From Halomonas sp. (GTDB lineage: Bacteria; Pseudomonadota; Gammaproteobacteria; Pseudomonadales; Halomonadaceae), in contig NZ_JBDNGD010000196.1 of the NCBI RefSeq assembly GCF_041689495.1, positions 1 to 61,132 on the forward strand: a stretch of DNA of 61,132 nucleotides. The letters run 5' to 3'. Under the pieces are notes generated by a model. The model did not search any database and was not told the DNA's origin. It saw only the letters and a program-made list of their open reading frames with translations. A program made the translations under genes and the position numbers. Shown here piece by piece: positions 11,229 to 31,727 of this stretch (the stretch's first letter is position 1; each line of letters opens with the position of its first letter).

Positions 11229-11732
11229 CTATTCTTTCAGCACGAGATAGGAGTTCTCGTCCAGATACTTTCGGGTGAGTTCCACACCGGCTCTCGTGCT
11301 CAGATGTTTTGCGCGAAGGTGGGCCAGCGGGTCAACCCGCCAGTCGTCTTCGTAGTGTGCGTAGAGTGCTCTCCCGGTGCCGCCCCGGTCGCGCTGGAAT
11401 AGCGTCACGTGAAGCTGCATCCCGTGCTCTACGAGGTCTGGTGCATCACGATGGAGCAGCACCCACGAGCCTTCACTGAGCCTCCCATCGGGGAGTGATT
11501 TCAGCGCAGATATGGGGTTCCTTCGGAATCCAACATCGTCCAGTTCTAGTTCGATGGTGTCTTCCTCCTCATCGAGTTCGGCAACGTACTGGTCGTAGCC
11601 GACTTTACCCTGTGAGTACAATCCGATGCCGAGCACCTCTCCGATGGTTGTCAGCGGGTCGTGAAACCGTGGGTACCAATCGCGACGGAACTCTTCGACC
11701 CAATCGTCGGTTTCATCAAGCTCGTAGTTCAT
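11229..11732 (-). CDS. Hypothetical protein
   Basis: Start MNYELD overlaps the upstream gene; QLHVTLF...LYAHYE motif. Confidence 0.6.
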   Translation of the reverse strand: MNYELDETDDWVEEFRRDWYPRFHDPLTTIGEVLGIGLYSQGKVGYDQYVAELDEEEDTIELELDDVGFRRNPISALKSLPDGRLSEGSWVLLHRDAPDLVEHGMQLHVTLFQRDRGGTGRALYAHYEDDWRVDPLAHLRAKHLSTRAGVELTRKYLDENSYLVLKE

Positions 11733-12111
11733 TGGTGTAGACCGTCTTGTAGTTCTTCTGCAAGCAGTATTGGCCCAATGTCCACTCGAAGGTCTTCCCA
11801 CTGGAGTAGACCGCATCGTCCGTGAAGCACACGATGTGGGCTTCTACCCCCCGCATTAGGTATGCGAGAGACACTGGTTCGTCTGTCTCACTGAGCAAGT
11901 ATGACGCCGCGACGAATGCGTAGTCTTCGCAATCGCCCTGTCGCTTCGAAAGCGTCTCTTCGACGGGCTGAAGTCTGTCCCAGACCCCGAAGAGTTTGTC
12001 TTCTTGCCACGTGAACTTCTTGTTGAACCAACGCAGGTCGAACGAAGACCAGTCGAGTTCTGGTTTCACGTATCGCTCAGGCCGGAGCATTGCGCGAACT
12101 GTCCACGTCAT
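11716..12111 (-). CDS. Transglutaminase-like cysteine protease fold protein
   Basis: GDCEDYA catalytic motif with downstream AH. Confidence 0.7.
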   Translation of the reverse strand: MTWTVRAMLRPERYVKPELDWSSFDLRWFNKKFTWQEDKLFGVWDRLQPVEETLSKRQGDCEDYAFVAASYLLSETDEPVSLAYLMRGVEAHIVCFTDDAVYSSGKTFEWTLGQYCLQKNYKTVYTNELRA

Positions 12112-12935
12112 TCAGGTACCTCTGCCTTCTCGGCGTGATAGCCCGCAAAGCGAACGCTTGTCTCAATCCAGTTGTCGTCGCTCGTGTACTCGCCCAGACT
12201 GTAGCCGTTCGTCACGTGCGCAAGACCGTGGTATGCCGACCACTTAGCCGGCGAAGCGATGAACTTGAAGACTTTCTCGGCCATCTCGCCATGCCCTGCT
12301 TCACGGAGGAGTCGTCCGTTCTCCGATGCAACGTCAGCAGCGCGGTCGCACTCGAACGAACATGGGTAAAACTCGATGAAGCGCCAGCCCATGTAGGCCC
12401 AGAACGTGTTGAGGATGTGGTGTGGTGACTCTACGACGAGTTCTCCACCTCTGTCTTCCATCGACGGGGTTCGCCGAGCGATGCTCGCCATCGGGTCTTC
12501 GTAGCCGTTCTGCCGGTCTTCGTGGTGCGCTGTTGCGCAGCAGTGTGGAACGCCTTGAAGTTCCATGCCGAGGATGGGGTCGAGTTCGTTGTTGAGAACA
12601 GCTTCCGGGCTGATTTTCGAGGTGTTTACAATCGCGATGGTGGTTCCCTGATTGCGCTGCTGTGAAGCGAACTGAACTTCGTCGGGCAGTGACCCGATGA
12701 GGCCGGGAACGTCCTCCGCTTTCCACGTATCTACGGTGAGCTTTCGCGGGTGCTCGTCATCGAGTACAGCATCGACCTTCGCTTGCTTGAATGCGGCGGG
12801 GAAGGGACCGAGGTAGTCGCTCCAGTAGTCGCGAAGCTCGGTTCCTTTCCAGTTGTGTTTGACAACACGAGGAAGGTCGAGGGTTAGTTCAGGTGCTTCT
12901 CTCTCGGGGTCGAGTGGTGAGGCGGCGTCGGTCAT
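12108..12935 (-). CDS. Hypothetical Cys-containing protein, coupled to the radical SAM gene
   Basis: PHCC and FYPCSFEC motifs; TAATG overlap with the rSAM stop. Confidence 0.65.
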   Translation of the reverse strand: MTDAASPLDPEREAPELTLDLPRVVKHNWKGTELRDYWSDYLGPFPAAFKQAKVDAVLDDEHPRKLTVDTWKAEDVPGLIGSLPDEVQFASQQRNQGTTIAIVNTSKISPEAVLNNELDPILGMELQGVPHCCATAHHEDRQNGYEDPMASIARRTPSMEDRGGELVVESPHHILNTFWAYMGWRFIEFYPCSFECDRAADVASENGRLLREAGHGEMAEKVFKFIASPAKWSAYHGLAHVTNGYSLGEYTSDDNWIETSVRFAGYHAEKAEVPE

Positions 12936-14365
12936 TAGTGGGAAATGTCTCCGTGAATGGAGCCGGTTTCGGGGTCTGCCGTGACGTTCTCTTCCCCGTA
13001 TTTCTCGATGTACGCATCGCGCTTGGTGTCGAAGTCGGCGTTTTGAAGGCTCTGTGACAACACGCTGTTCTCATCATGACGTGCGCCACTAACGCTCGGC
13101 TTCGTGGCGTCTCGGCTGACCTGACTCTGGTGCATCCCGGCGAACGGCTTGATGTCGAGTTGCCCGCTCGCTGCGAGGTCGGCAATTGGTGCGTCCCACG
13201 GAGCATCAGTAATCATGCGCATGCCGGTCATCATCGCCTTCATGTCGTGCTTGATGGCGTCGAGAACGGCGTACTTCGCTTCACACCAGCGGGTACGATT
13301 GCGGTAGTCGTAGTCCAATCCAGACGAGGGGCAGCCGCCCTGACAGACGTTCCAGAACTGACAGCCCTTACAGCCGCCGTGGTCTTCTTCGCCCTCGGTG
13401 TGTGGACCGGGGACTTGCTTCAGCATCTCGTAGCGTTCCTCGGTGTTGTTGTACTCGCTGCCGTTCGAGTCACCCTGTAGGAACGCCGCGCCGTCGCCGA
13501 CAGTGCCCCACGTCTTCCCGCAGCCTGTTGTGTTGCCATCTCCCGTGGCGATTTTTGCTGCCCCAGCGTTGAACACGTCACACTTGTTCTCCACGCAGTT
13601 GCGGAGTGAGTTGCCGATGAGGTTGTCCTGCATATCGTTCATCGGCCCCCAATTGCGGTAGGGTTCAGCCTTCATCCACTCCCACGTCCGGAGGTAGACT
13701 TCCTTGAGCCGCGTCGGTGTCAGCGACTCATCGGCTTGGACATCTTCGTAGGGAATGGCGGGGTTGAAGTGACCGCTCACGCCACGTTCCTGAAGCGAGT
13801 CCATCCACGAAAGTAGGTTCTCCAGCTTTTCGTCGTCGCCTGCATTCTGCTTTGTGAGCACCACGATAATGCCCATCGACGCGTCTGAGTCGGCGACACG
13901 CTCGATGGAGTTGAGCGTTTTCTCGGTCATTGAGTCCGTGATGTCGCGCTGTTCGCCGTCCATCTCCGAACGGGCGTATCGTAATCCGTTGAGGTCGCCC
14001 GGCCCGTCGCACGAGATGCCGACGTTGACGCGGTACTTCTCGAACATCTCGATATGCTCGTCGGTAATGAGCGTCCCGTTCGTCTGGATGTGGGTGTTCT
14101 TTTTCTGCTCTTCGAGGTCGTACTCTTCGTGAGTCCACTTCAGGATTCTCTCGATGTGTTCGTCGCGCATCAAGAGTGGTTCGCCTCCGTGAAGTCCCGG
14201 CGTCTGGCCGGGGTAGCGCTGTTTGAACTGCTTGAGGCGGCCCATTATCGCCTCGATGTCGTACTCGCTGTCGATTTGGGCTTGGTCGTATTGTCTGCCC
14301 GGTTCTTCGTAGCAATAATCGCAGCCCATGTTGCAGCGGAGGGTTGCGGAGACGTGAACGCTCAT
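12935..14365 (-). CDS. Radical SAM enzyme with SPASM domain
   Basis: CNMGCDYC (CxxxCxxC), HGGEPLL, QTNGTL, ISCDG, and C-terminal CxxCxxxxxCxGGC...C SPASM motif. Confidence 0.95.
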   Translation of the reverse strand: MSVHVSATLRCNMGCDYCYEEPGRQYDQAQIDSEYDIEAIMGRLKQFKQRYPGQTPGLHGGEPLLMRDEHIERILKWTHEEYDLEEQKKNTHIQTNGTLITDEHIEMFEKYRVNVGISCDGPGDLNGLRYARSEMDGEQRDITDSMTEKTLNSIERVADSDASMGIIVVLTKQNAGDDEKLENLLSWMDSLQERGVSGHFNPAIPYEDVQADESLTPTRLKEVYLRTWEWMKAEPYRNWGPMNDMQDNLIGNSLRNCVENKCDVFNAGAAKIATGDGNTTGCGKTWGTVGDGAAFLQGDSNGSEYNNTEERYEMLKQVPGPHTEGEEDHGGCKGCQFWNVCQGGCPSSGLDYDYRNRTRWCEAKYAVLDAIKHDMKAMMTGMRMITDAPWDAPIADLAASGQLDIKPFAGMHQSQVSRDATKPSVSGARHDENSVLSQSLQNADFDTKRDAYIEKYGEENVTADPETGSIHGDISH

Positions 14366-14367
14366 GA

Positions 14368-14955
14368 TTAAACTGGTTGGGGTTCGTCAGCGTAGTTCGT
14401 GTGGTCGCTGAAGTCGTCCGAGTGTGGCGGGTTGTCCGAGTAGCCGGTGTTGTCGTGGTCGTCGTGGTCGTTGTGGTCGTTGTGGTCGGTGCCAGAGTCC
14501 GTGTGGTCGCTGAACGCCCCCAAGTCCCCGTGTGCTGCCTGATAATCCTCGTGACTGTCCGAGTGTGATGTGTCGGAGTGACTGTCGTAGTGGTCGGAGT
14601 GATTACTGTGCGTGTCGTCGTGCGGTGGGTTGTCTGAGTACCCCGAATCAGTGTGTACGTTTTCGTCAGCACCAGCCGCAGTCTTCTGCTGGCTTTCATC
14701 AACGTAAGTGATGAGCGAGTTTTCGACCCAGATAGACCCCTTTGTGCCAGCAACAGCAGAGTCTACGTTTCGGGGGATGCGCCGCTTTCGCTGATTCGAA
14801 TCAACGTAGTAGAGGTATTCACCCTGAATCCCCAGATAGCCGGGAGATTTCGAAACGGAACCGAGGTCTGCGCCTGTGTAGGCCCACTCAGTTTCCGTGC
14901 CGTCGAGAAAGTGCAGGTCATTGCCCTCTACCCACATCGAGCCGGTCTCAGGCAT
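14368..14955 (-). CDS. Tail-associated beta-repeat protein with His/Asp-rich (aromatic-X-D) C-terminus; candidate rSAM substrate
   Basis: Three GSxWVEGxxLxYxD-like repeats followed by about 21 H/Y/F-x-D/N triplets. Confidence 0.7.
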   Translation of the reverse strand: MPETGSMWVEGNDLHFLDGTETEWAYTGADLGSVSKSPGYLGIQGEYLYYVDSNQRKRRIPRNVDSAVAGTKGSIWVENSLITYVDESQQKTAAGADENVHTDSGYSDNPPHDDTHSNHSDHYDSHSDTSHSDSHEDYQAAHGDLGAFSDHTDSGTDHNDHNDHDDHDNTGYSDNPPHSDDFSDHTNYADEPQPV

Positions 14956-14960
14956 TCACA

Positions 14961-15428
14961 TCACGCCCACTGGTCGCTCCCAACGGGGAGCACGAGTGCG
15001 TTTGGTCGAAGTGTCTCCGTTTCGCGGTAGTAGCGTCCGTCGTGAAGGTGCCCCACGTCTGCGAAGTTCGTGTCTACTTCAGTTTCAGTGTAGTAGCGGT
15101 CGTCGTGGTCGTGGCCCGATGGCGAAAAGTTCGAGTCGGCTTCGGTTTCCGTGTAGTATCGTCCGTCGTGAAGGTGCCCCGCGGCTGCGAAGTCTGCGGC
15201 GTGCTGGCCGTCTACGGTGTCGGCCTCATCGGCTTGGTCCACGATTCCGTCGTCGTTCGAGTCAAGACGCGTGAACTCATCTGCGTGGTCGGCGAGGGCC
15301 TGACTAACGGCGTCCCACCACCAGTCGAACTGCTGCGCGTCCGGTCGTTCGTTCTGCTCGAAGTTGAGTGACCCCGGTGGTTTCGCTCCAACGTCTCCAT
15401 GCGTGTAGTCGAGTTTGGTTCGTGCCAT
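14961..15428 (-). CDS. Tail fibre-related protein with GHxHDxRYYTETE repeats
   Basis: Three copies of a repeat seen in phage fibre proteins; ADEADTVDG motif. Confidence 0.7.
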   Translation of the reverse strand: MARTKLDYTHGDVGAKPPGSLNFEQNERPDAQQFDWWWDAVSQALADHADEFTRLDSNDDGIVDQADEADTVDGQHAADFAAAGHLHDGRYYTETEADSNFSPSGHDHDDRYYTETEVDTNFADVGHLHDGRYYRETETLRPNALVLPVGSDQWA

Positions 15429-16937: not shown

Positions 16938-19466
16938 TCATGTACCGTCCAGTTCAGTTAGCGCGTCTACGTAGGTCGTATCCTGTGCAGCGTCCCACCC
17001 AATGCCACCGGAAGTCGACTGGAACGTGGTTACCTGATACGTCGTAGAGCCATACACGGAATCGTCGGTAGGGTTGACTGCGGTGGCTACCACAGTGTCG
17101 TCGCCCTGCCACTCGACTTCTATGCGAACCGGTGCGTCTGTTGGCGTTCCAACGTTGCTGTCGGTGCCGCCTTGTGCAGTCCCGTTGTCGTACTCCCAGA
17201 CGTAGAGGTCGCCACCGCTGTTGAGGTAGACAACACACCCGCTTATGGTTGCGGGGTCGGCTGTCTGGTGGCCGAAGATGAAGCCAGCGTTGTTCGAGCC
17301 GGGGTTCTGCTGTAAGTAGCTGTAGGTCTTGCCACGCTCTACAGTCACATCCATTGTGACGTAGGGCGACGCCTCGTATCCACCCGTGTCTGAGTTGATG
17401 GCTAATGACTGTGAGCCTTCTAACGCCGGTGAAGTTGTTGTGGATAACTCGTTGTTTGTGCCGGTGTACTTAGCAAGTGGGTCGGCTCCCTCGAAGTCTT
17501 CTAAGACGACGGGACCAGTGGAGCCTTCTACGTCAAATGACTCTGCATGTTCAGTGAATGCACTGACGCGAACGGCGTAACCTTCTCCGTTTTTCAGTCC
17601 CGTGACCGTATGGCTTACCGTTTCACCTTCGGTGACGGTGGTGGTTATATCCGAGCCGTTCTGGGTCCAGTTGAGCGTTTTCCCGTCTTCGGCGACTTCA
17701 GCACGGTAGCCGTCCTTGTTGTTTGCGTTGTCGATAAACTGAATGTCGGCTTCATTGTCACGCACATCGAGGACTTCTAACCCAGTTGGAGGCGGAAGTA
17801 GTGTTACTTCAGAGACCTCGTTTGAGACTTTCGACTCTTCACCACTATTGTATGAAGTAACTCGATAGAAATATTGCTCACCGTCAAGAAGGCCAATATC
17901 TGTATATGATATAGTATCAGCAGATAGATTAGCAACTTCAGTATAGTCACCGACAACAGAGCCGGAAGCCGCTGCTCTATAAACACGGTAGCCGTCTTCG
18001 TTTGAAACGTTGTCCCATCCGATTGTGAGTTCACGTTCCGTGGCAGAATCATCTATGCTGAGATTAGATGGACTGGGTGGTAGGATTTTAGCGTTCGCCT
18101 CGTTGGAGACTGCGCTCTCCCCACCGAACACGGACTCCGCCGTCACGCGGTAGTAGTTTTCCCCTGTCAGCGGGCTGGTGTCCGTGTACGTCTCCGAGAC
18201 GCCGCTGAAGTTTAGCCCGTCCCACCACATATCGAGGGTGCCGTCCCCCCATCCGACGCTAATTGGGTTGTTGAAGTTCCAAAGCTCGACGGACTCGATG
18301 TCTACGCCCTGCTTGAGCGAACGCGTTGCCGACGAACTCGTCCCCGTGATTAAGTTCTCGAACGACGCAGTTACCTCACCCGTGCCCCAGTTAAAGTCCC
18401 ACTCGACTCGCACCCACGCGTCGTACTCGCCGGTTCTGGTGTTTGTATATTCGTAACCGGGCGCGAAGTCTATGACGTGTTCGGAGTTGTCCGTCGCGGT
18501 TCCGCCTTCGTAGTTGCCGTTCGAGTTGACGAGGCGGACGCCGCCCCCGGCGCTGGTCTCTCTTTCTTGGAAGTAGTAGACGAACCTGTCCGGCTGTTCG
18601 CCGCCCGCGAACGGCGTCCACTCGGCCTGTAGCCCGGTGCCGTTCGCCCCGGAGTAGAACGAGTTGCTCCCCTCGACCACTCGGTCGGTCGCCTGACCGC
18701 CGTTTGAGACGGTCCACGGCGTCATGTACTCGAAGCCGCCGAACTTATCGTTGGCGTCTACGGTATCTATGAGCGTGTAGTCGCCTGTGGTAGTCCCGCT
18801 TGATGTAGCACGGTAGACGTTGAATATGGACTCGTTGTTGCTTTCGTCTACCCACGACAGGTCTATGTCGCCGTCAGCGTTTGTCGCCGCCAGCGAGGAC
18901 GGTGGTTTTGGATTTACATATTCGAGTAATGTTGCATCGTAGTATCCACCGGCGTTCCCGGAGTGACCAGTCTCGGCGTCGATGACGGTGTCGTTACCGT
19001 CACCCCCGTCCATCTGGAATCTGAGCGTCTCTGTACCAACGGGTAGGAATACTTCCAGAGAGTGTTTGTTCCAGCCGTTAACGTTCGGGTTAGACCGCTC
19101 TCCGGTCCACATGGTCTTCCACTCTTGGAGGGTGGTCCCAGACCCATCTTTTGCGTATAGATGGAGCCGCGCGTCGTCCTCCCAAACGTATTGTTGTGAG
19201 CCACCAGAACCATCACCGCTCCCCGATGCACCTGATGACTTGAACCACATCTCAGCTCGTATCTCTCTGCCCCCTTCTACGGTTATATCTTGGTAGATGT
19301 AGGCATTCGGCCACACATCCGCGTTTTCGTACGTGTCGCCCCACGACTGCGCCCCGGCATAGGATTCAGTAGTGTTGACGGTGTATTCGCTGTGCGTAGA
19401 ATTCCACGAACCGGGGTTTATAGTACCGGTTGAATATGATTCAAAACCATCTACCAATATTGGCAT
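16938..19466 (-). CDS. Tail fibre/adhesin with fibronectin type III repeats and lectin-like domains
   Basis: Repeated PxxPSxL...LSW.D...YRVYR...YYRVTA...ES..SNE FN3 signatures. Confidence 0.75.
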   Translation of the reverse strand: MPILVDGFESYSTGTINPGSWNSTHSEYTVNTTESYAGAQSWGDTYENADVWPNAYIYQDITVEGGREIRAEMWFKSSGASGSGDGSGGSQQYVWEDDARLHLYAKDGSGTTLQEWKTMWTGERSNPNVNGWNKHSLEVFLPVGTETLRFQMDGGDGNDTVIDAETGHSGNAGGYYDATLLEYVNPKPPSSLAATNADGDIDLSWVDESNNESIFNVYRATSSGTTTGDYTLIDTVDANDKFGGFEYMTPWTVSNGGQATDRVVEGSNSFYSGANGTGLQAEWTPFAGGEQPDRFVYYFQERETSAGGGVRLVNSNGNYEGGTATDNSEHVIDFAPGYEYTNTRTGEYDAWVRVEWDFNWGTGEVTASFENLITGTSSSATRSLKQGVDIESVELWNFNNPISVGWGDGTLDMWWDGLNFSGVSETYTDTSPLTGENYYRVTAESVFGGESAVSNEANAKILPPSPSNLSIDDSATERELTIGWDNVSNEDGYRVYRAAASGSVVGDYTEVANLSADTISYTDIGLLDGEQYFYRVTSYNSGEESKVSNEVSEVTLLPPPTGLEVLDVRDNEADIQFIDNANNKDGYRAEVAEDGKTLNWTQNGSDITTTVTEGETVSHTVTGLKNGEGYAVRVSAFTEHAESFDVEGSTGPVVLEDFEGADPLAKYTGTNNELSTTTSPALEGSQSLAINSDTGGYEASPYVTMDVTVERGKTYSYLQQNPGSNNAGFIFGHQTADPATISGCVVYLNSGGDLYVWEYDNGTAQGGTDSNVGTPTDAPVRIEVEWQGDDTVVATAVNPTDDSVYGSTTYQVTTFQSTSGGIGWDAAQDTTYVDALTELDGT

Positions 19467-30020: not shown

Positions 30021-30250
30021 CAGTCCCAAGTCACCCGGTAGAATCCGTTGACCCAGTTGGCGTGAAGTCTCTTTCTGATTTCATCGTGGTAGTCTGCCGG
30101 GTCTTCGCCGGACTCCGTGATGAAGTCCACCACGAATGAAAGTCGGAGTGACATGGAAGAGTCGCCTTCAACAGTACCGTCGTCGTTGAGACGAGCGGCG
30201 AGCGTGTATTCCTCGGTGTCGCTCACCCATTTATACACTTCAACTGTCAT
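30020..30250 (-). CDS. Small acidic hypothetical protein
   Basis: Overlaps both neighbours, suggesting translational coupling. Confidence 0.5.
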   Translation of the reverse strand: MTVEVYKWVSDTEEYTLAARLNDDGTVEGDSSMSLRLSFVVDFITESGEDPADYHDEIRKRLHANWVNGFYRVTWD

Positions 30251-31727
30251 CAGGGGACTCTCCAATAATTTCGTCCATCATGTCGCTGTTCGATACTTCA
30301 TCGGGGTCCCATGAACTCGGGGAGTACATGTCCCATGTGAGTCCCGGCCTGCTCGTACTTCCGCTATCTTCGTCAGTGCCGGGAAGCGGGTCTTGGCTTC
30401 TCCGCTCTTCGAGCGATTCCTGAAGCTGTTCACGCATGTTGTCAATGTCGTACTGGAAGAGTTCCTTATCGTTGAACTTGCTTTCTTCGCCGAAGATGTG
30501 GTAATACCCCGGCTCATCGGGTGAGAGCAAGTCTCTGAAGTGGAGCTTCCATTCGGAGTTTTCTGGATGAAGGTTCTCCGCGAACTCTACGAACTCCCGA
30601 CGGGTGTCGAGGTCGCGGAGTTCATCGAAGATTTTCTCCTGTCTATCAAAAATAGCATCTGTGACAGCCTTCATCCGCTCCGGGTCTTTGACAACGTACT
30701 CGTTATCTCTGTCTTTACGGAAGAGTTGTTTGAACGGCCTGACCGGGAGAAGCCTCTTTACACGCGTAGACTGAAACTGCATGTTCGGAGGATTGTGACC
30801 ACCGGAGTCAATTGCCCACGGTTTGTTGTCGCCGTCCAGCAGAACGTTTCCGAGGTGCCGGTCGTCGTTATTGAAGATGTAGTCGAGAACACCAACGCGA
30901 GCAGACCATTCGATGTTAGCTTCACCGAACTCTGATGGGGTTAGTTCCGTTTCGTGGCCAAATTTGAAATCGTTATTTACAACGTCACCGATTTCACGAC
31001 CGTTCTCGATAAACTCCATCAAGTTGCCGGTGGATTGCTCCCCGTTAACGTCGGTGATAGTTCGCTGTCGTGAAACAGGGAATCCGCCATCACCAGTCCA
31101 GCCAAGTCGGTCGGCAAACTCGTAGAAAACTTCCTCGTTCTCTACGACACCAGTCACCGAGCTTTCAACATCGTTCGGTTTGAATATCGCCCTGTCTCCC
31201 CGTTCGTATGTTGCAAGTTGAATCTTGTCAGAATTTGCACTCCGCTCGAATCCAGCTTCTCGTCCGGTGATTATTTCGGAGATTGTCGCATCCCCGTCAG
31301 CAACCGAACTGGTGTCGAGTTGGGTCTTCAGCGGGTCGCCAGTGCCACCGTCTCCGCCGTCGTCCTTGAGACGCCAGCCGCCCTGCACCTTGCTGTGAAC
31401 CCACTCGATGATGTTCTGAACGGGAGGCTGGCCCCAGCGGGCCTTGTACCCTTCATCAACGACGTAGGCGTGCTCGGAGTAGTTCGTGATACGGCCAGAC
31501 ACGCGGGTCGGTGAGAGGTTATCTACGTCCTTGGACCCCCAGCCGTACTTGTAGACTTCCTTGTGCCACACGCGGCGTGTGGTGTAAATCTGCTGTTGCG
31601 CGGCGTCGTGTCCACGGTCGATGAGGTCGCCAGCAGCGTCCTGCATCCCATCGTTGATACCACGACGGATTGCGGTCATGGTCCGCTCGACACCTTCGAT
31701 TTCGTAGTCGAGTCGGAATTTTCCCAT
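30240..31727 (-). CDS. gp10-like neck protein N-terminus fused to a PI3/PI4-kinase/HipA-like kinase domain
   Basis: N-terminus HAYVVDEG...PPVQNIIEWV; kinase motifs AIFKP, E, DYIFNNDDRHLGN and WAIDSG. Confidence 0.7.
   Translation of the reverse strand: MGKFRLDYEIEGVERTMTAIRRGINDGMQDAAGDLIDRGHDAAQQQIYTTRRVWHKEVYKYGWGSKDVDNLSPTRVSGRITNYSEHAYVVDEGYKARWGQPPVQNIIEWVHSKVQGGWRLKDDGGDGGTGDPLKTQLDTSSVADGDATISEIITGREAGFERSANSDKIQLATYERGDRAIFKPNDVESSVTGVVENEEVFYEFADRLGWTGDGGFPVSRQRTITDVNGEQSTGNLMEFIENGREIGDVVNNDFKFGHETELTPSEFGEANIEWSARVGVLDYIFNNDDRHLGNVLLDGDNKPWAIDSGGHNPPNMQFQSTRVKRLLPVRPFKQLFRKDRDNEYVVKDPERMKAVTDAIFDRQEKIFDELRDLDTRREFVEFAENLHPENSEWKLHFRDLLSPDEPGYYHIFGEESKFNDKELFQYDIDNMREQLQESLEERRSQDPLPGTDEDSGSTSRPGLTWDMYSPSSWDPDEVSNSDMMDEIIGESPDDS

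Follow-up and report, generated by a model that had tools for sequence, protein, structure and literature searches.

A widespread viral cassette pairs a radical SAM/SPASM enzyme with an aromatic-x-Asp repeat protein predicted to cap the tail fibre

Introduction

What is the target of a radical S-adenosylmethionine (SAM)/SPASM enzyme encoded in the tail operon of a virus? This question is raised by a contig of 61,132 bases (NZ_JBDNGD010000196.1, binned as Halomonas sp. in assembly GCF_041689495.1; analysed over its full length and hereafter called the window), in which the gene of such an enzyme lies between genes encoding a small protein with an array of aromatic-x-Asp/Asn triplets and a DUF483-like partner. 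A prediction made earlier from the sequence alone (the original prediction) had proposed that the virus installs cyclophane cross-links on the triplets of this tail-type protein. We find that the three genes constitute a real, widespread and uncharacterised viral cassette. It is likely, taking all chemistries together, that the array undergoes modification that depends on the enzyme. As to its nature, the features of the three proteins lead us to lean, with moderate confidence, to the view that the virus uses the radical SAM/SPASM enzyme and the DUF483-like partner to cross-link the aromatic-x-Asp/Asn triplets of a predicted fibre-tip cap protein.

Cross-linking by radical SAM enzymes has so far been described for three-residue motifs in short bacterial peptides, and for whole proteins in a few Cys-based cases. 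If the proposal is true, a virion protein with 20-100 links would represent a new class of virion modification, common to archaeal and bacterial viruses, and this chemistry would have gained a new use. A three-gene "rSAM module" was described in the phages Cumys and phiMa and in prophages, and DNA modification was proposed as its role (Kolesnik et al., Viruses 2024, PMC11437467); the accessible portion does not mention the repeats and reports no test of function.

Results

The array consists of aromatic-x-Asp/Asn triplets

The array protein (195 amino acids; 14368..14955 on the minus strand, as are all genes given below) is the putative substrate of the enzyme and a putative fibre-tip cap. It was taken from the list of open reading frames and gave no Pfam, NCBIfam or PHROG match, and homologues are encoded directly upstream of the radical SAM gene in many loci. 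All 21 triplets named in the original prediction (16 starting with His, 3 with Tyr and 2 with Phe) are present in identical order at residues 101-190 (14386..14655), and the sequence GYSDNPPH indeed occurs twice in this tail. Asp or Asn is found at position +2 of 21 of the 23 aromatic residues of the tail, including 16/16 His, versus 6, 3 and 3 at positions +1, +3 and +4, respectively. When the tail was shuffled 100,000 times, the number of triplets averaged 7.1 (standard deviation 1.9) and never exceeded 15, which rules out that the 21 triplets are there by chance. The array contains no Cys.

The same register was observed when the arrays of related loci were analysed. Asp or Asn occupies position +2 for 2912/2993 His, 222/332 Phe, 261/470 Tyr and 56/115 Trp residues, compared with 656/11685 of the other residues; the figure for His, unlike the others, is inflated because the arrays were delimited by their His motifs. 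Relative to background, Phe, Tyr and Trp are thus 9- to 12-fold enriched at the place of His, and the residues found most often in the arrays are His and Asp. The second position of the triplet is free, and the spacing between triplets varies from 3 to 9 residues. These counts strongly indicate that aromatic-x-Asp/Asn is the selected unit. The replacement of His by Phe, Tyr and Trp is easier to reconcile with chemistry on the ring than with metal binding.

The three genes form a conserved cassette in archaeal and bacterial viruses

The gene of the radical SAM/SPASM enzyme (476 amino acids; 12935..14365) starts with an ATG (14365) located 2 nt past the stop codon of the array gene, and its own stop codon overlaps the ATG of the third gene by one base (TAATG, 12935), in line with the 2-nt distance and the coupling described in the original prediction. 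At E<=0.001, 512 relatives of the enzyme were retrieved; identity to it is 43% or more for the best 120, of which the named ones are haloarchaeal. Loci were gathered with two alignments and are a sample only, so that the numbers of loci given below are lower bounds. A profile score separated members of the family (>=322) from other radical SAM enzymes (<=191). The two loci of the window and locus L208 (score 191, in neither set) were left out, and the remaining 94 family loci gave 76 clusters at 90% identity. A protein was scored as an array when it had at least six H-x-D/N motifs in 60 residues, counted by pattern only.

Among the 52 non-redundant clusters with 3 kb on both sides, 50 contain an array and all 52 a DUF483-like gene, although the latter count is partly due to construction because 19 of these same partners went into the partner profile. 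The control loci, which encode other radical SAM enzymes and have full flanks, gave 1/92 for the array and 1/92 for the partner. When all 76 clusters were considered the array was found in 69 and the partner also in 69, and every cluster in which the partner was missed has less than 2 kb of downstream sequence. These results provide strong evidence that the co-occurrence suggested by the original prediction reflects a conserved three-gene unit.

The trio occurs in archaeal as well as bacterial viruses. A Halomicrococcus plasmid provirus shares the gene order of the window (baseplate J, fibre, array protein, enzyme, partner), and in the Thermus phages Cumys and phiMa the same trio (Cumys_13/12/11) is likewise ordered and follows genes for baseplate and fibre. 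The enzymes of Cumys and the window are 32% identical, the partner and the beta-domain of the array protein match with E-values of 3.7e-8 and 1.3e-21, respectively, and the upstream gene of Cumys ends with VLPVGTDRWAP. The two differ in that the virus of the window is probably archaeal, and in that it has 21 triplets versus 54 H-x-D motifs in Cumys. Nine records of a phage collection match the enzyme, none of them haloarchaeal, and no cultured halovirus record in that collection was matched. IMG/VR single-protein locus searches with the enzyme and with the partner found nothing. Because cultured phages (Cumys, phiMa and phiLo, which grow on Thermus thermophilus) carry the cassette, the proposal is directly testable.

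Two loci were considered as counter-examples and rejected. Locus L188 contains an array (L188:2908-3945) that consists mostly of Phe-x-Asn/Asp (PFDNT, PFSNT) and has His only at its ends. The cultured 178-kb Thermus phage phiLo encodes three array proteins behind its baseplate genes, 4-10 kb away; these follow one another behind baseplate wedge genes (phiLo_135-137, L260:43511-49367) and contain 58, 104 and 75 H-x-D/N units. No array was seen at the phiLo-like locus L215 and at the short-flanked locus L007. A different radical SAM enzyme is encoded beside a His-x-Asn repeat protein in a Clostridia metagenome-assembled genome (L108:7662-11482), which is possibly an independent pairing with a like array.

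The enzyme has an anSME-like cysteine layout and belongs to a clade of its own

The radical SAM core of the enzyme was recognised by Pfam (PF04055, 54.5 bits; cut-off 29.5) and contains the CxxxCxxC motif (C11, C15, C18). The same Pfam search gave no SPASM domain match, yet eight SPASM cysteines are present, of which C332, C335, C341 and C345 form a CX2CX5CX3C motif and C257, C262, C282 and C361 are the further ones; the set was aligned to the anaerobic sulfatase-maturating enzyme (anSME), and all are kept in 41/41 family members. Eight such cysteines are also found in anSME, DynA and CbpB. The best solved-structure match is anSME (E 1e-31), and the enzyme lacks an N-terminal extension of the size of a RiPP recognition element (RRE; RiPP, ribosomally synthesised and post-translationally modified peptide). 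Its best NCBIfam matches are peptide and protein maturases, all below cut-off. The dynobactin maturase model scored 84 of 450 bits, anaerobic sulfatase maturase (TIGR03942) 75.6/349 bits and HxsB (TIGR03978) 46/370 bits; Ser is found at +2 of the array His in 8/3104 cases.

In both trees, the second of which is a quick IQ-TREE tree, the family is a single clade (support 1.0 and 100) that sits on a long stem and falls outside the triceptide clade, itself supported at 0.98 and 97, and anSME is a separate clade (support 100). Invariant Arg residues of the family are R24, R129, R311 and R355. An Arg at alignment position 199, considered as the mirror of D214 of HtkB, was dropped when primers put D214 five residues later.

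The enzyme ends with a triplet of its own, a single His-Gly-Asp unit (12947..12955), and its relatives carry several. At least two H-x-D motifs within the last 90 residues were found in 65/76 family clusters versus 1/160 other radical SAM enzymes, 142 of which were scanned with NCBIfam models for labelling. It would fit the sequences that this tail is a substrate mimic or a self-substrate. Several haloviral enzymes of the family have about 800 residues (P0040, P0052, P0079, P0090, P0094, P0095, P0113 and P0115), seven of them with intein or LAGLIDADG Pfam marks, and the insert of P0040 is located inside the SPASM cysteine motif.

The beta-domain is a putative docking module for the end of the fibre

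The N-terminal part of the array protein (residues 1-97, 14665..14955) is likely a docking module for the fibre end. It contains three G-x-[MLI]-[WG]-[VI]-[EQ] repeats, which start at residues 5, 39 and 73, and in the AlphaFold2 model residues 1-96 are folded into three repeated beta units (mean pLDDT 88). The three repeats of the original prediction are hence supported by pattern and model; their description as fibre-like is not, as no solved structure matches. The lack of a solved-structure match, here or for the partner, does not demonstrate a new fold. A word-based search with the beta-domain found nothing, and the Atlas feature score of 0.76 is a lead at most. The only strong match in BFVD is A0A451ED92 (342 amino acids, unnamed), likely a Thermus phage homologue. 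The beta-domain has 642 relatives at E<=0.001; 56 of the best 150 have at least five H-x-D/N motifs, 63 others are long and have at most two, and lectin, PKD, FN3, Ig or GLUG domains were detected in 9/68 relatives scanned. Judged from these sequences, the beta-domain behaves like a plug-in module bearing different payloads. In the array-free proteins (P0123-P0270) it is N- or C-terminal and accompanied by lectin, PKD, FN3, GLUG or Cys-rich parts, and some of them have signal-anchor-like N-termini, as in an unnamed surface docking module.

Three lines of evidence tie the array to tail and fibre proteins. One is synteny. The cassette lies between two genes homologous to gp34 and gp39 of HRTV-2 (58% identity); in that virus the interval holds tail fibre gp35 and three small genes (gp36-38). 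By gene order, the cassette replaces the fibre genes of related hafunaviruses, whose tail region is hypervariable (Liu et al., PMC8651126). Another is fusion. In 6 of the 21 array fusion proteins scanned (rows 1-21 of 40; loci L021, L189, L195, L203, L210 and L249) a PHROG fibre, fibre-J or virion-structural match lies outside the array; for 7 others that part matches unnamed phage families only, and for 8 it matches nothing. The three array proteins of phiLo gave no match in the same scan.

The third line is the upstream gene (14961..15428), which encodes a short fibre-type protein with three H-x-H-D-x-R-Y-Y repeats and weak PHROG long-tail-fibre matches (E 1e-4 to 6e-4). It is likely the anchor of the array protein. 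Its last 11 codons specify LVLPVGSDQWA. The gene upstream of proteins with the beta-domain ends with [LI]V[LI]PVGx[DN]xW in 25/53 cases; with a relaxed pattern this motif was found in 33/47 clusters with the beta-domain, but in 0/21 without it and in 0/109 controls. Seven of 16 upstream proteins scanned have a PHROG tail or fibre match. Together, these results uphold a link of the array protein to the tail (synteny, fusion and motif co-occurrence), though not the fibre-like structure, and the sequence data suggest that the array protein is a fibre-tip cap. The LVLPVGSDQWA end is common to very different fibre and tail-tip proteins, only together with the three-repeat beta-domain, and is a candidate for a general fibre-end docking tag.

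The partner is a DUF483-like protein

The third gene (12108..12935) encodes 275 amino acids with a conserved P-x-C-C motif (C132, C133) and C192/C196, and without a methyltransferase domain; a partner fused to a methyltransferase is present in 31/69 relative clusters. Its score versus Pfam PF04467 is 13.8 bits, below the cut-off of 25. A phmmer search, however, matched it to the Cumys gene annotated as DUF483 (E 3.7e-8), and DUF483-bearing clusters of the Atlas were top by features (0.90) and structure (TM 0.81 and 0.74). Because it scores below the Pfam cut-off but is homologous to an annotated member and to DUF483-bearing clusters, we call it DUF483-like. The AlphaFold2 model (pLDDT 85) has no clear solved match (none with Foldseek; best VIA Z-score 6.7, to 2guk, residues 44-145). 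Our guess is that the partner holds the substrate or performs a second tailoring step.

DUF483-like genes flank FxsB-family synthases too. In L026:3526-8871 (and also in L043 and L034) such a synthase, accompanied in L026 by a His-Ser-Ser precursor peptide, is followed by two DUF483-like genes, and these loci point to a tailoring role of DUF483-like proteins in cellular clusters of the triceptide type.

Discussion

Proposed mechanism

In the cross-linking mechanism to which we lean, the beta-domain would bind the C-terminal LVLPVGxDxWA ends of the upstream fibre, with three repeats for three chains, such that the array is shown at the fibre tip. The 5'-deoxyadenosyl radical would take a beta-hydrogen from Asp/Asn, and the resulting carbon radical would join the ring of the aromatic residue two positions upstream (at C2 or a ring N of His; at a ring carbon of Tyr, Phe or Trp), with a change of -2 Da per triplet, while two auxiliary Fe-S clusters would accept the electron. 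The row of rings would make the disordered acidic tail stiff, protease-resistant and probably metal-binding, and the stiffened surface might serve host attachment or environmental survival. Links across three residues are known between Tyr and Asp (YxdB), Trp and Asn/Asp, and Phe and Asn (OscB, XncB) (PMC11002830). HaaB, YhhB and HtkB make His C2-to-C-beta links (PMC11002830, PMC11499958), which is a His-Lys link for HtkB (PMC11499958), and His-Ala, His-Arg and the dynobactin His-N link are listed as well (PMC11002830). CrpC is an example of a SPASM enzyme acting on a whole protein (PMC13692751). Neither these arrays nor the modification of any virion protein by a radical SAM enzyme were the subject of a paper found in open-licence PMC and bioRxiv, a search that did not include bioRxiv supplements or subscription papers, among them the main triceptide surveys.

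Several observations weigh against this mechanism. The enzyme scores far below the cut-offs of the triceptide models (bits/cut-off: YhhB 93/445, AmcB 84/425, GrrM 74/310, XyeB 66/450, FxsB 55/370). Of its four auxiliary-I cysteines, the three checked (C257, C282 and C345), present in 41/41 family rows of a 126-row alignment, are found in 0/40 triceptide-family rows, these being FxsB, YhhB, GrrM and AmcB, with XyeB, HaaB, HtkB, YxdB and ChlB not sampled; the reduced set of SPASM cysteines is a feature derived in this analysis. With at most 93 bits versus cut-offs of 310-450, eight SPASM cysteines versus four, and a clade of its own, the enzyme is not a member of the triceptide-synthase families tested. 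The His-Xaa-Ser and anaerobic sulfatase maturase models, for families also named for comparison in the original prediction, do not fit either. Approximately unbiased (AU) tests on 28 rows reject no placement of the family (sister to the triceptide clade, p 0.42; nested, p 0.34; third, p 0.24). The site of HtkB D214/HaaB H204 sets the preference for residue 3 (PMC11499958), and the position matching D214, read from primers, is in a loop that is variable in the family; the basic residue expected there for Asp is not conserved. The links described in the accessible portion of the review (PMC11002830) do not include His-to-Asp. The beta-domain matches no solved fibre structure (best Foldseek E 0.035; best VIA Z-score 4.0), and the fibre-end motif was chosen after the data had been seen, in related loci that are not independent. 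Finally, a Halorussus aquaticus plasmid encodes enzyme and partner among housekeeping-type genes, without an adjacent array (L262:12001-14206), and 0 triple-triplet matches were obtained on this 404-kb plasmid (the chromosome was not searched). The Halorussus enzyme has no His-x-Asp tail. It is one of a group of 441-amino-acid proteins from three Halorussus species, 60-66% identical to the enzyme of the window and among its closest relatives. The original prediction had held that such enzymes without an aromatic-x-Asp neighbour would speak against it; this is partly so, through the plasmid, and 50/52 family loci with full flanks have the array. The Halorussus pair either was captured and has its target elsewhere, or is a sign that the target of the enzyme is not the array.

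Since the enzyme is outside the tested triceptide-synthase families, "cyclophane" is used here as an analogy and not as a family assignment; by that analogy, the enzyme could act in the manner of a triceptide synthase while not being one itself.

Alternative explanations

The position outside the sampled triceptide families and the anSME-like eight-cysteine SPASM would also suit other chemistry on the same triplets, for instance desaturation, epimerisation or beta-oxidation of Asp/Asn, the product of which would be completed by the partner or the fused methyltransferase (methylation, aspartimide). The obligatory nature of the partner and its frequent methyltransferase fusion (31/69 clusters) agree with this, as does TigE, a SPASM enzyme that makes intra-residue changes on repeats (PMC10878394). 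A reaction on Asp alone, however, would not need position 1 to be limited to four aromatic kinds, and the dynobactin synthase, also an eight-cysteine enzyme, makes His-N to C-beta and Trp-to-C-beta links (PMC11002830). We thus consider other chemistry a less probable, if still appreciable, alternative. It is unlikely that the fibre-tip protein binds metal or mineral through a tail that stays unmodified, with enzyme and partner serving another target or metal loading. Fibres do use His motifs for metal binding, His and Asp predominate in the arrays, the upstream gene has H-x-H repeats, and the Halorussus aquaticus plasmid has the enzyme pair without an array; but neither the enrichment of Phe, Tyr and Trp at the His position nor the mostly Phe-x-Asn/Asp array of L188 is expected for metal binding, the fixed +2 register is far stricter than composition demands, the arrays track the enzyme family, and the enzyme bears triplets on its own tail.

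Repeated cores and a protease-like gene after the partner would conform to RiPP logic, in which the array, as a multi-core precursor, is first modified and afterwards cleaved by the protease to short peptides acting in the infected cell or on competitors. This protease was found in only one other collected locus (L003), arrays are fused to fibre and tail-tip proteins, and the irregular triplet spacing of 3-9 residues goes along with no conserved cut site seen, all of which makes a precursor very unlikely. We give hardly any credence to the idea that enzyme and partner modify viral DNA and that the array gene is a mere neighbour. Cyanobacterial homologues are reported near deazapurine genes (Kolesnik et al. 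2024, PMC11437467) and the partner has methyltransferase fusions; on the other hand, the cassette is located in late tail operons beside arrays (50/52 loci), the best NCBIfam matches of the enzyme are peptide and protein maturases, the enzyme itself bears triplets, and DUF483-like genes flank FxsB peptide maturases.

Beyond cross-linking of the array as such, we tentatively put forward a wider reading, in which we have somewhat less than even confidence. Tailed archaeal and bacterial viruses would have a modular system in common, by which dozens of His(aromatic)-Asp rings are written on a fibre-tip plug-in cap by means of a separate, self-stapling enzyme clade; this would be the first RiPP-type virion maturation, with a new His-Asp link and a poly-cyclophane material that sets host attachment, and Halorussus would have captured the pair for a cell-surface target.

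Comparison with known systems

The triceptide synthases (enzymes that form cyclophanes over three residues, 3-CyFEs: XncB/XyeB, OscB/GrrM, MscB/FxsB, YhhB, YxdB, HaaB, HtkB, AmcB) are alike in being radical SAM/SPASM enzymes encoded beside aromatic-X-X motifs, and in triceptides Asp/Asn is known at the third position and each of His, Tyr, Phe and Trp at the first. The present system differs in being viral, in having a folded domain with 20-110 motifs that is often fused to virion proteins, and in its obligatory DUF483-like partner. The dynobactin maturase (DynA/DynE) and anSME share the eight-cysteine SPASM layout and the absence of an N-terminal RRE-sized extension, and the link made by DynE joins His-N to C-beta over three residues; their substrate motif is another one, and no sulfatase C-x-P-x-R target was noted beside the enzyme of the window. 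Many cross-links on a whole protein are made by QhpD, from Cys thiols, and by the archaeal CrpC (PMC13692751). The links of both start at Cys thiols, whereas the array of the window is without Cys, and both are cellular and not viral. In T-even phages, gp38 docks at the fibre tip. This adhesin and the glycine-rich adhesins of hafunaviruses (PMC8651126) resemble the array protein as small proteins with a docking domain and a low-complexity payload, and the array gene too lies in the hypervariable tail region of a hafunavirus-like genome. They differ in that there is no sequence or fold match, the payload is aromatic-x-Asp versus polyglycine, dedicated enzymes are needed, and the array gene occupies the slot of HRTV-2 gp35-38, not that of the gp32 adhesin. 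With 195 amino acids, the array protein is one of the smallest putative substrates, and an enzyme that handles long arrays (His, Tyr, Phe, Trp) with no evident leader would be a useful peptide-stapling tool.

Neighbouring genes and origin of the contig

The gene coupled to that of the partner (11716..12111) encodes a transglutaminase-like cysteine protease (PF04473, over cut-off) and is probably outside the cassette; its membership was left unsupported by the single other locus with a homologue (L003). In two haloarchaeal virus loci the partner is followed by a gene that by eye resembles alkaline phosphatase/sulfatase (L263:14486-15292, L003:8264-9088).

The contig codes for terminase, portal, capsid, sheath, tube, tape measure, baseplate and a family-B polymerase, and its sheath shares 63-64% identity with the sheaths of HCTV-6, HRTV-7, HSTV-2 and HRTV-2, the last of which is classified under Hafunaviridae, Mincapvirus. 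The bin that holds the contig is bacterial, as shown by four sigma-70 region-2 matches, and the GC content is 57% for the contig versus 63% for the bin. The contig is therefore probably a haloarchaeal, Mincapvirus-like myovirus mis-binned with a bacterium. A search of 400 genomes of the class of the bin gave no match to the enzyme beyond the copy of the window; this result is uninformative, given that the bin is that of a bacterium and the contig looks like a Mincapvirus myovirus of haloarchaea. Elsewhere in the window, a gene of the head-tail region (30240-31727, minus strand) has a PI3/PI4-kinase Pfam match barely over the cut-off (27.3 vs 27.1 bits), and an 842-amino-acid FN3/lectin-like protein (16938-19466, minus strand), encoded at the position of HRTV-2 gp31-32 (adhesin), is a candidate for the main receptor-binding protein.

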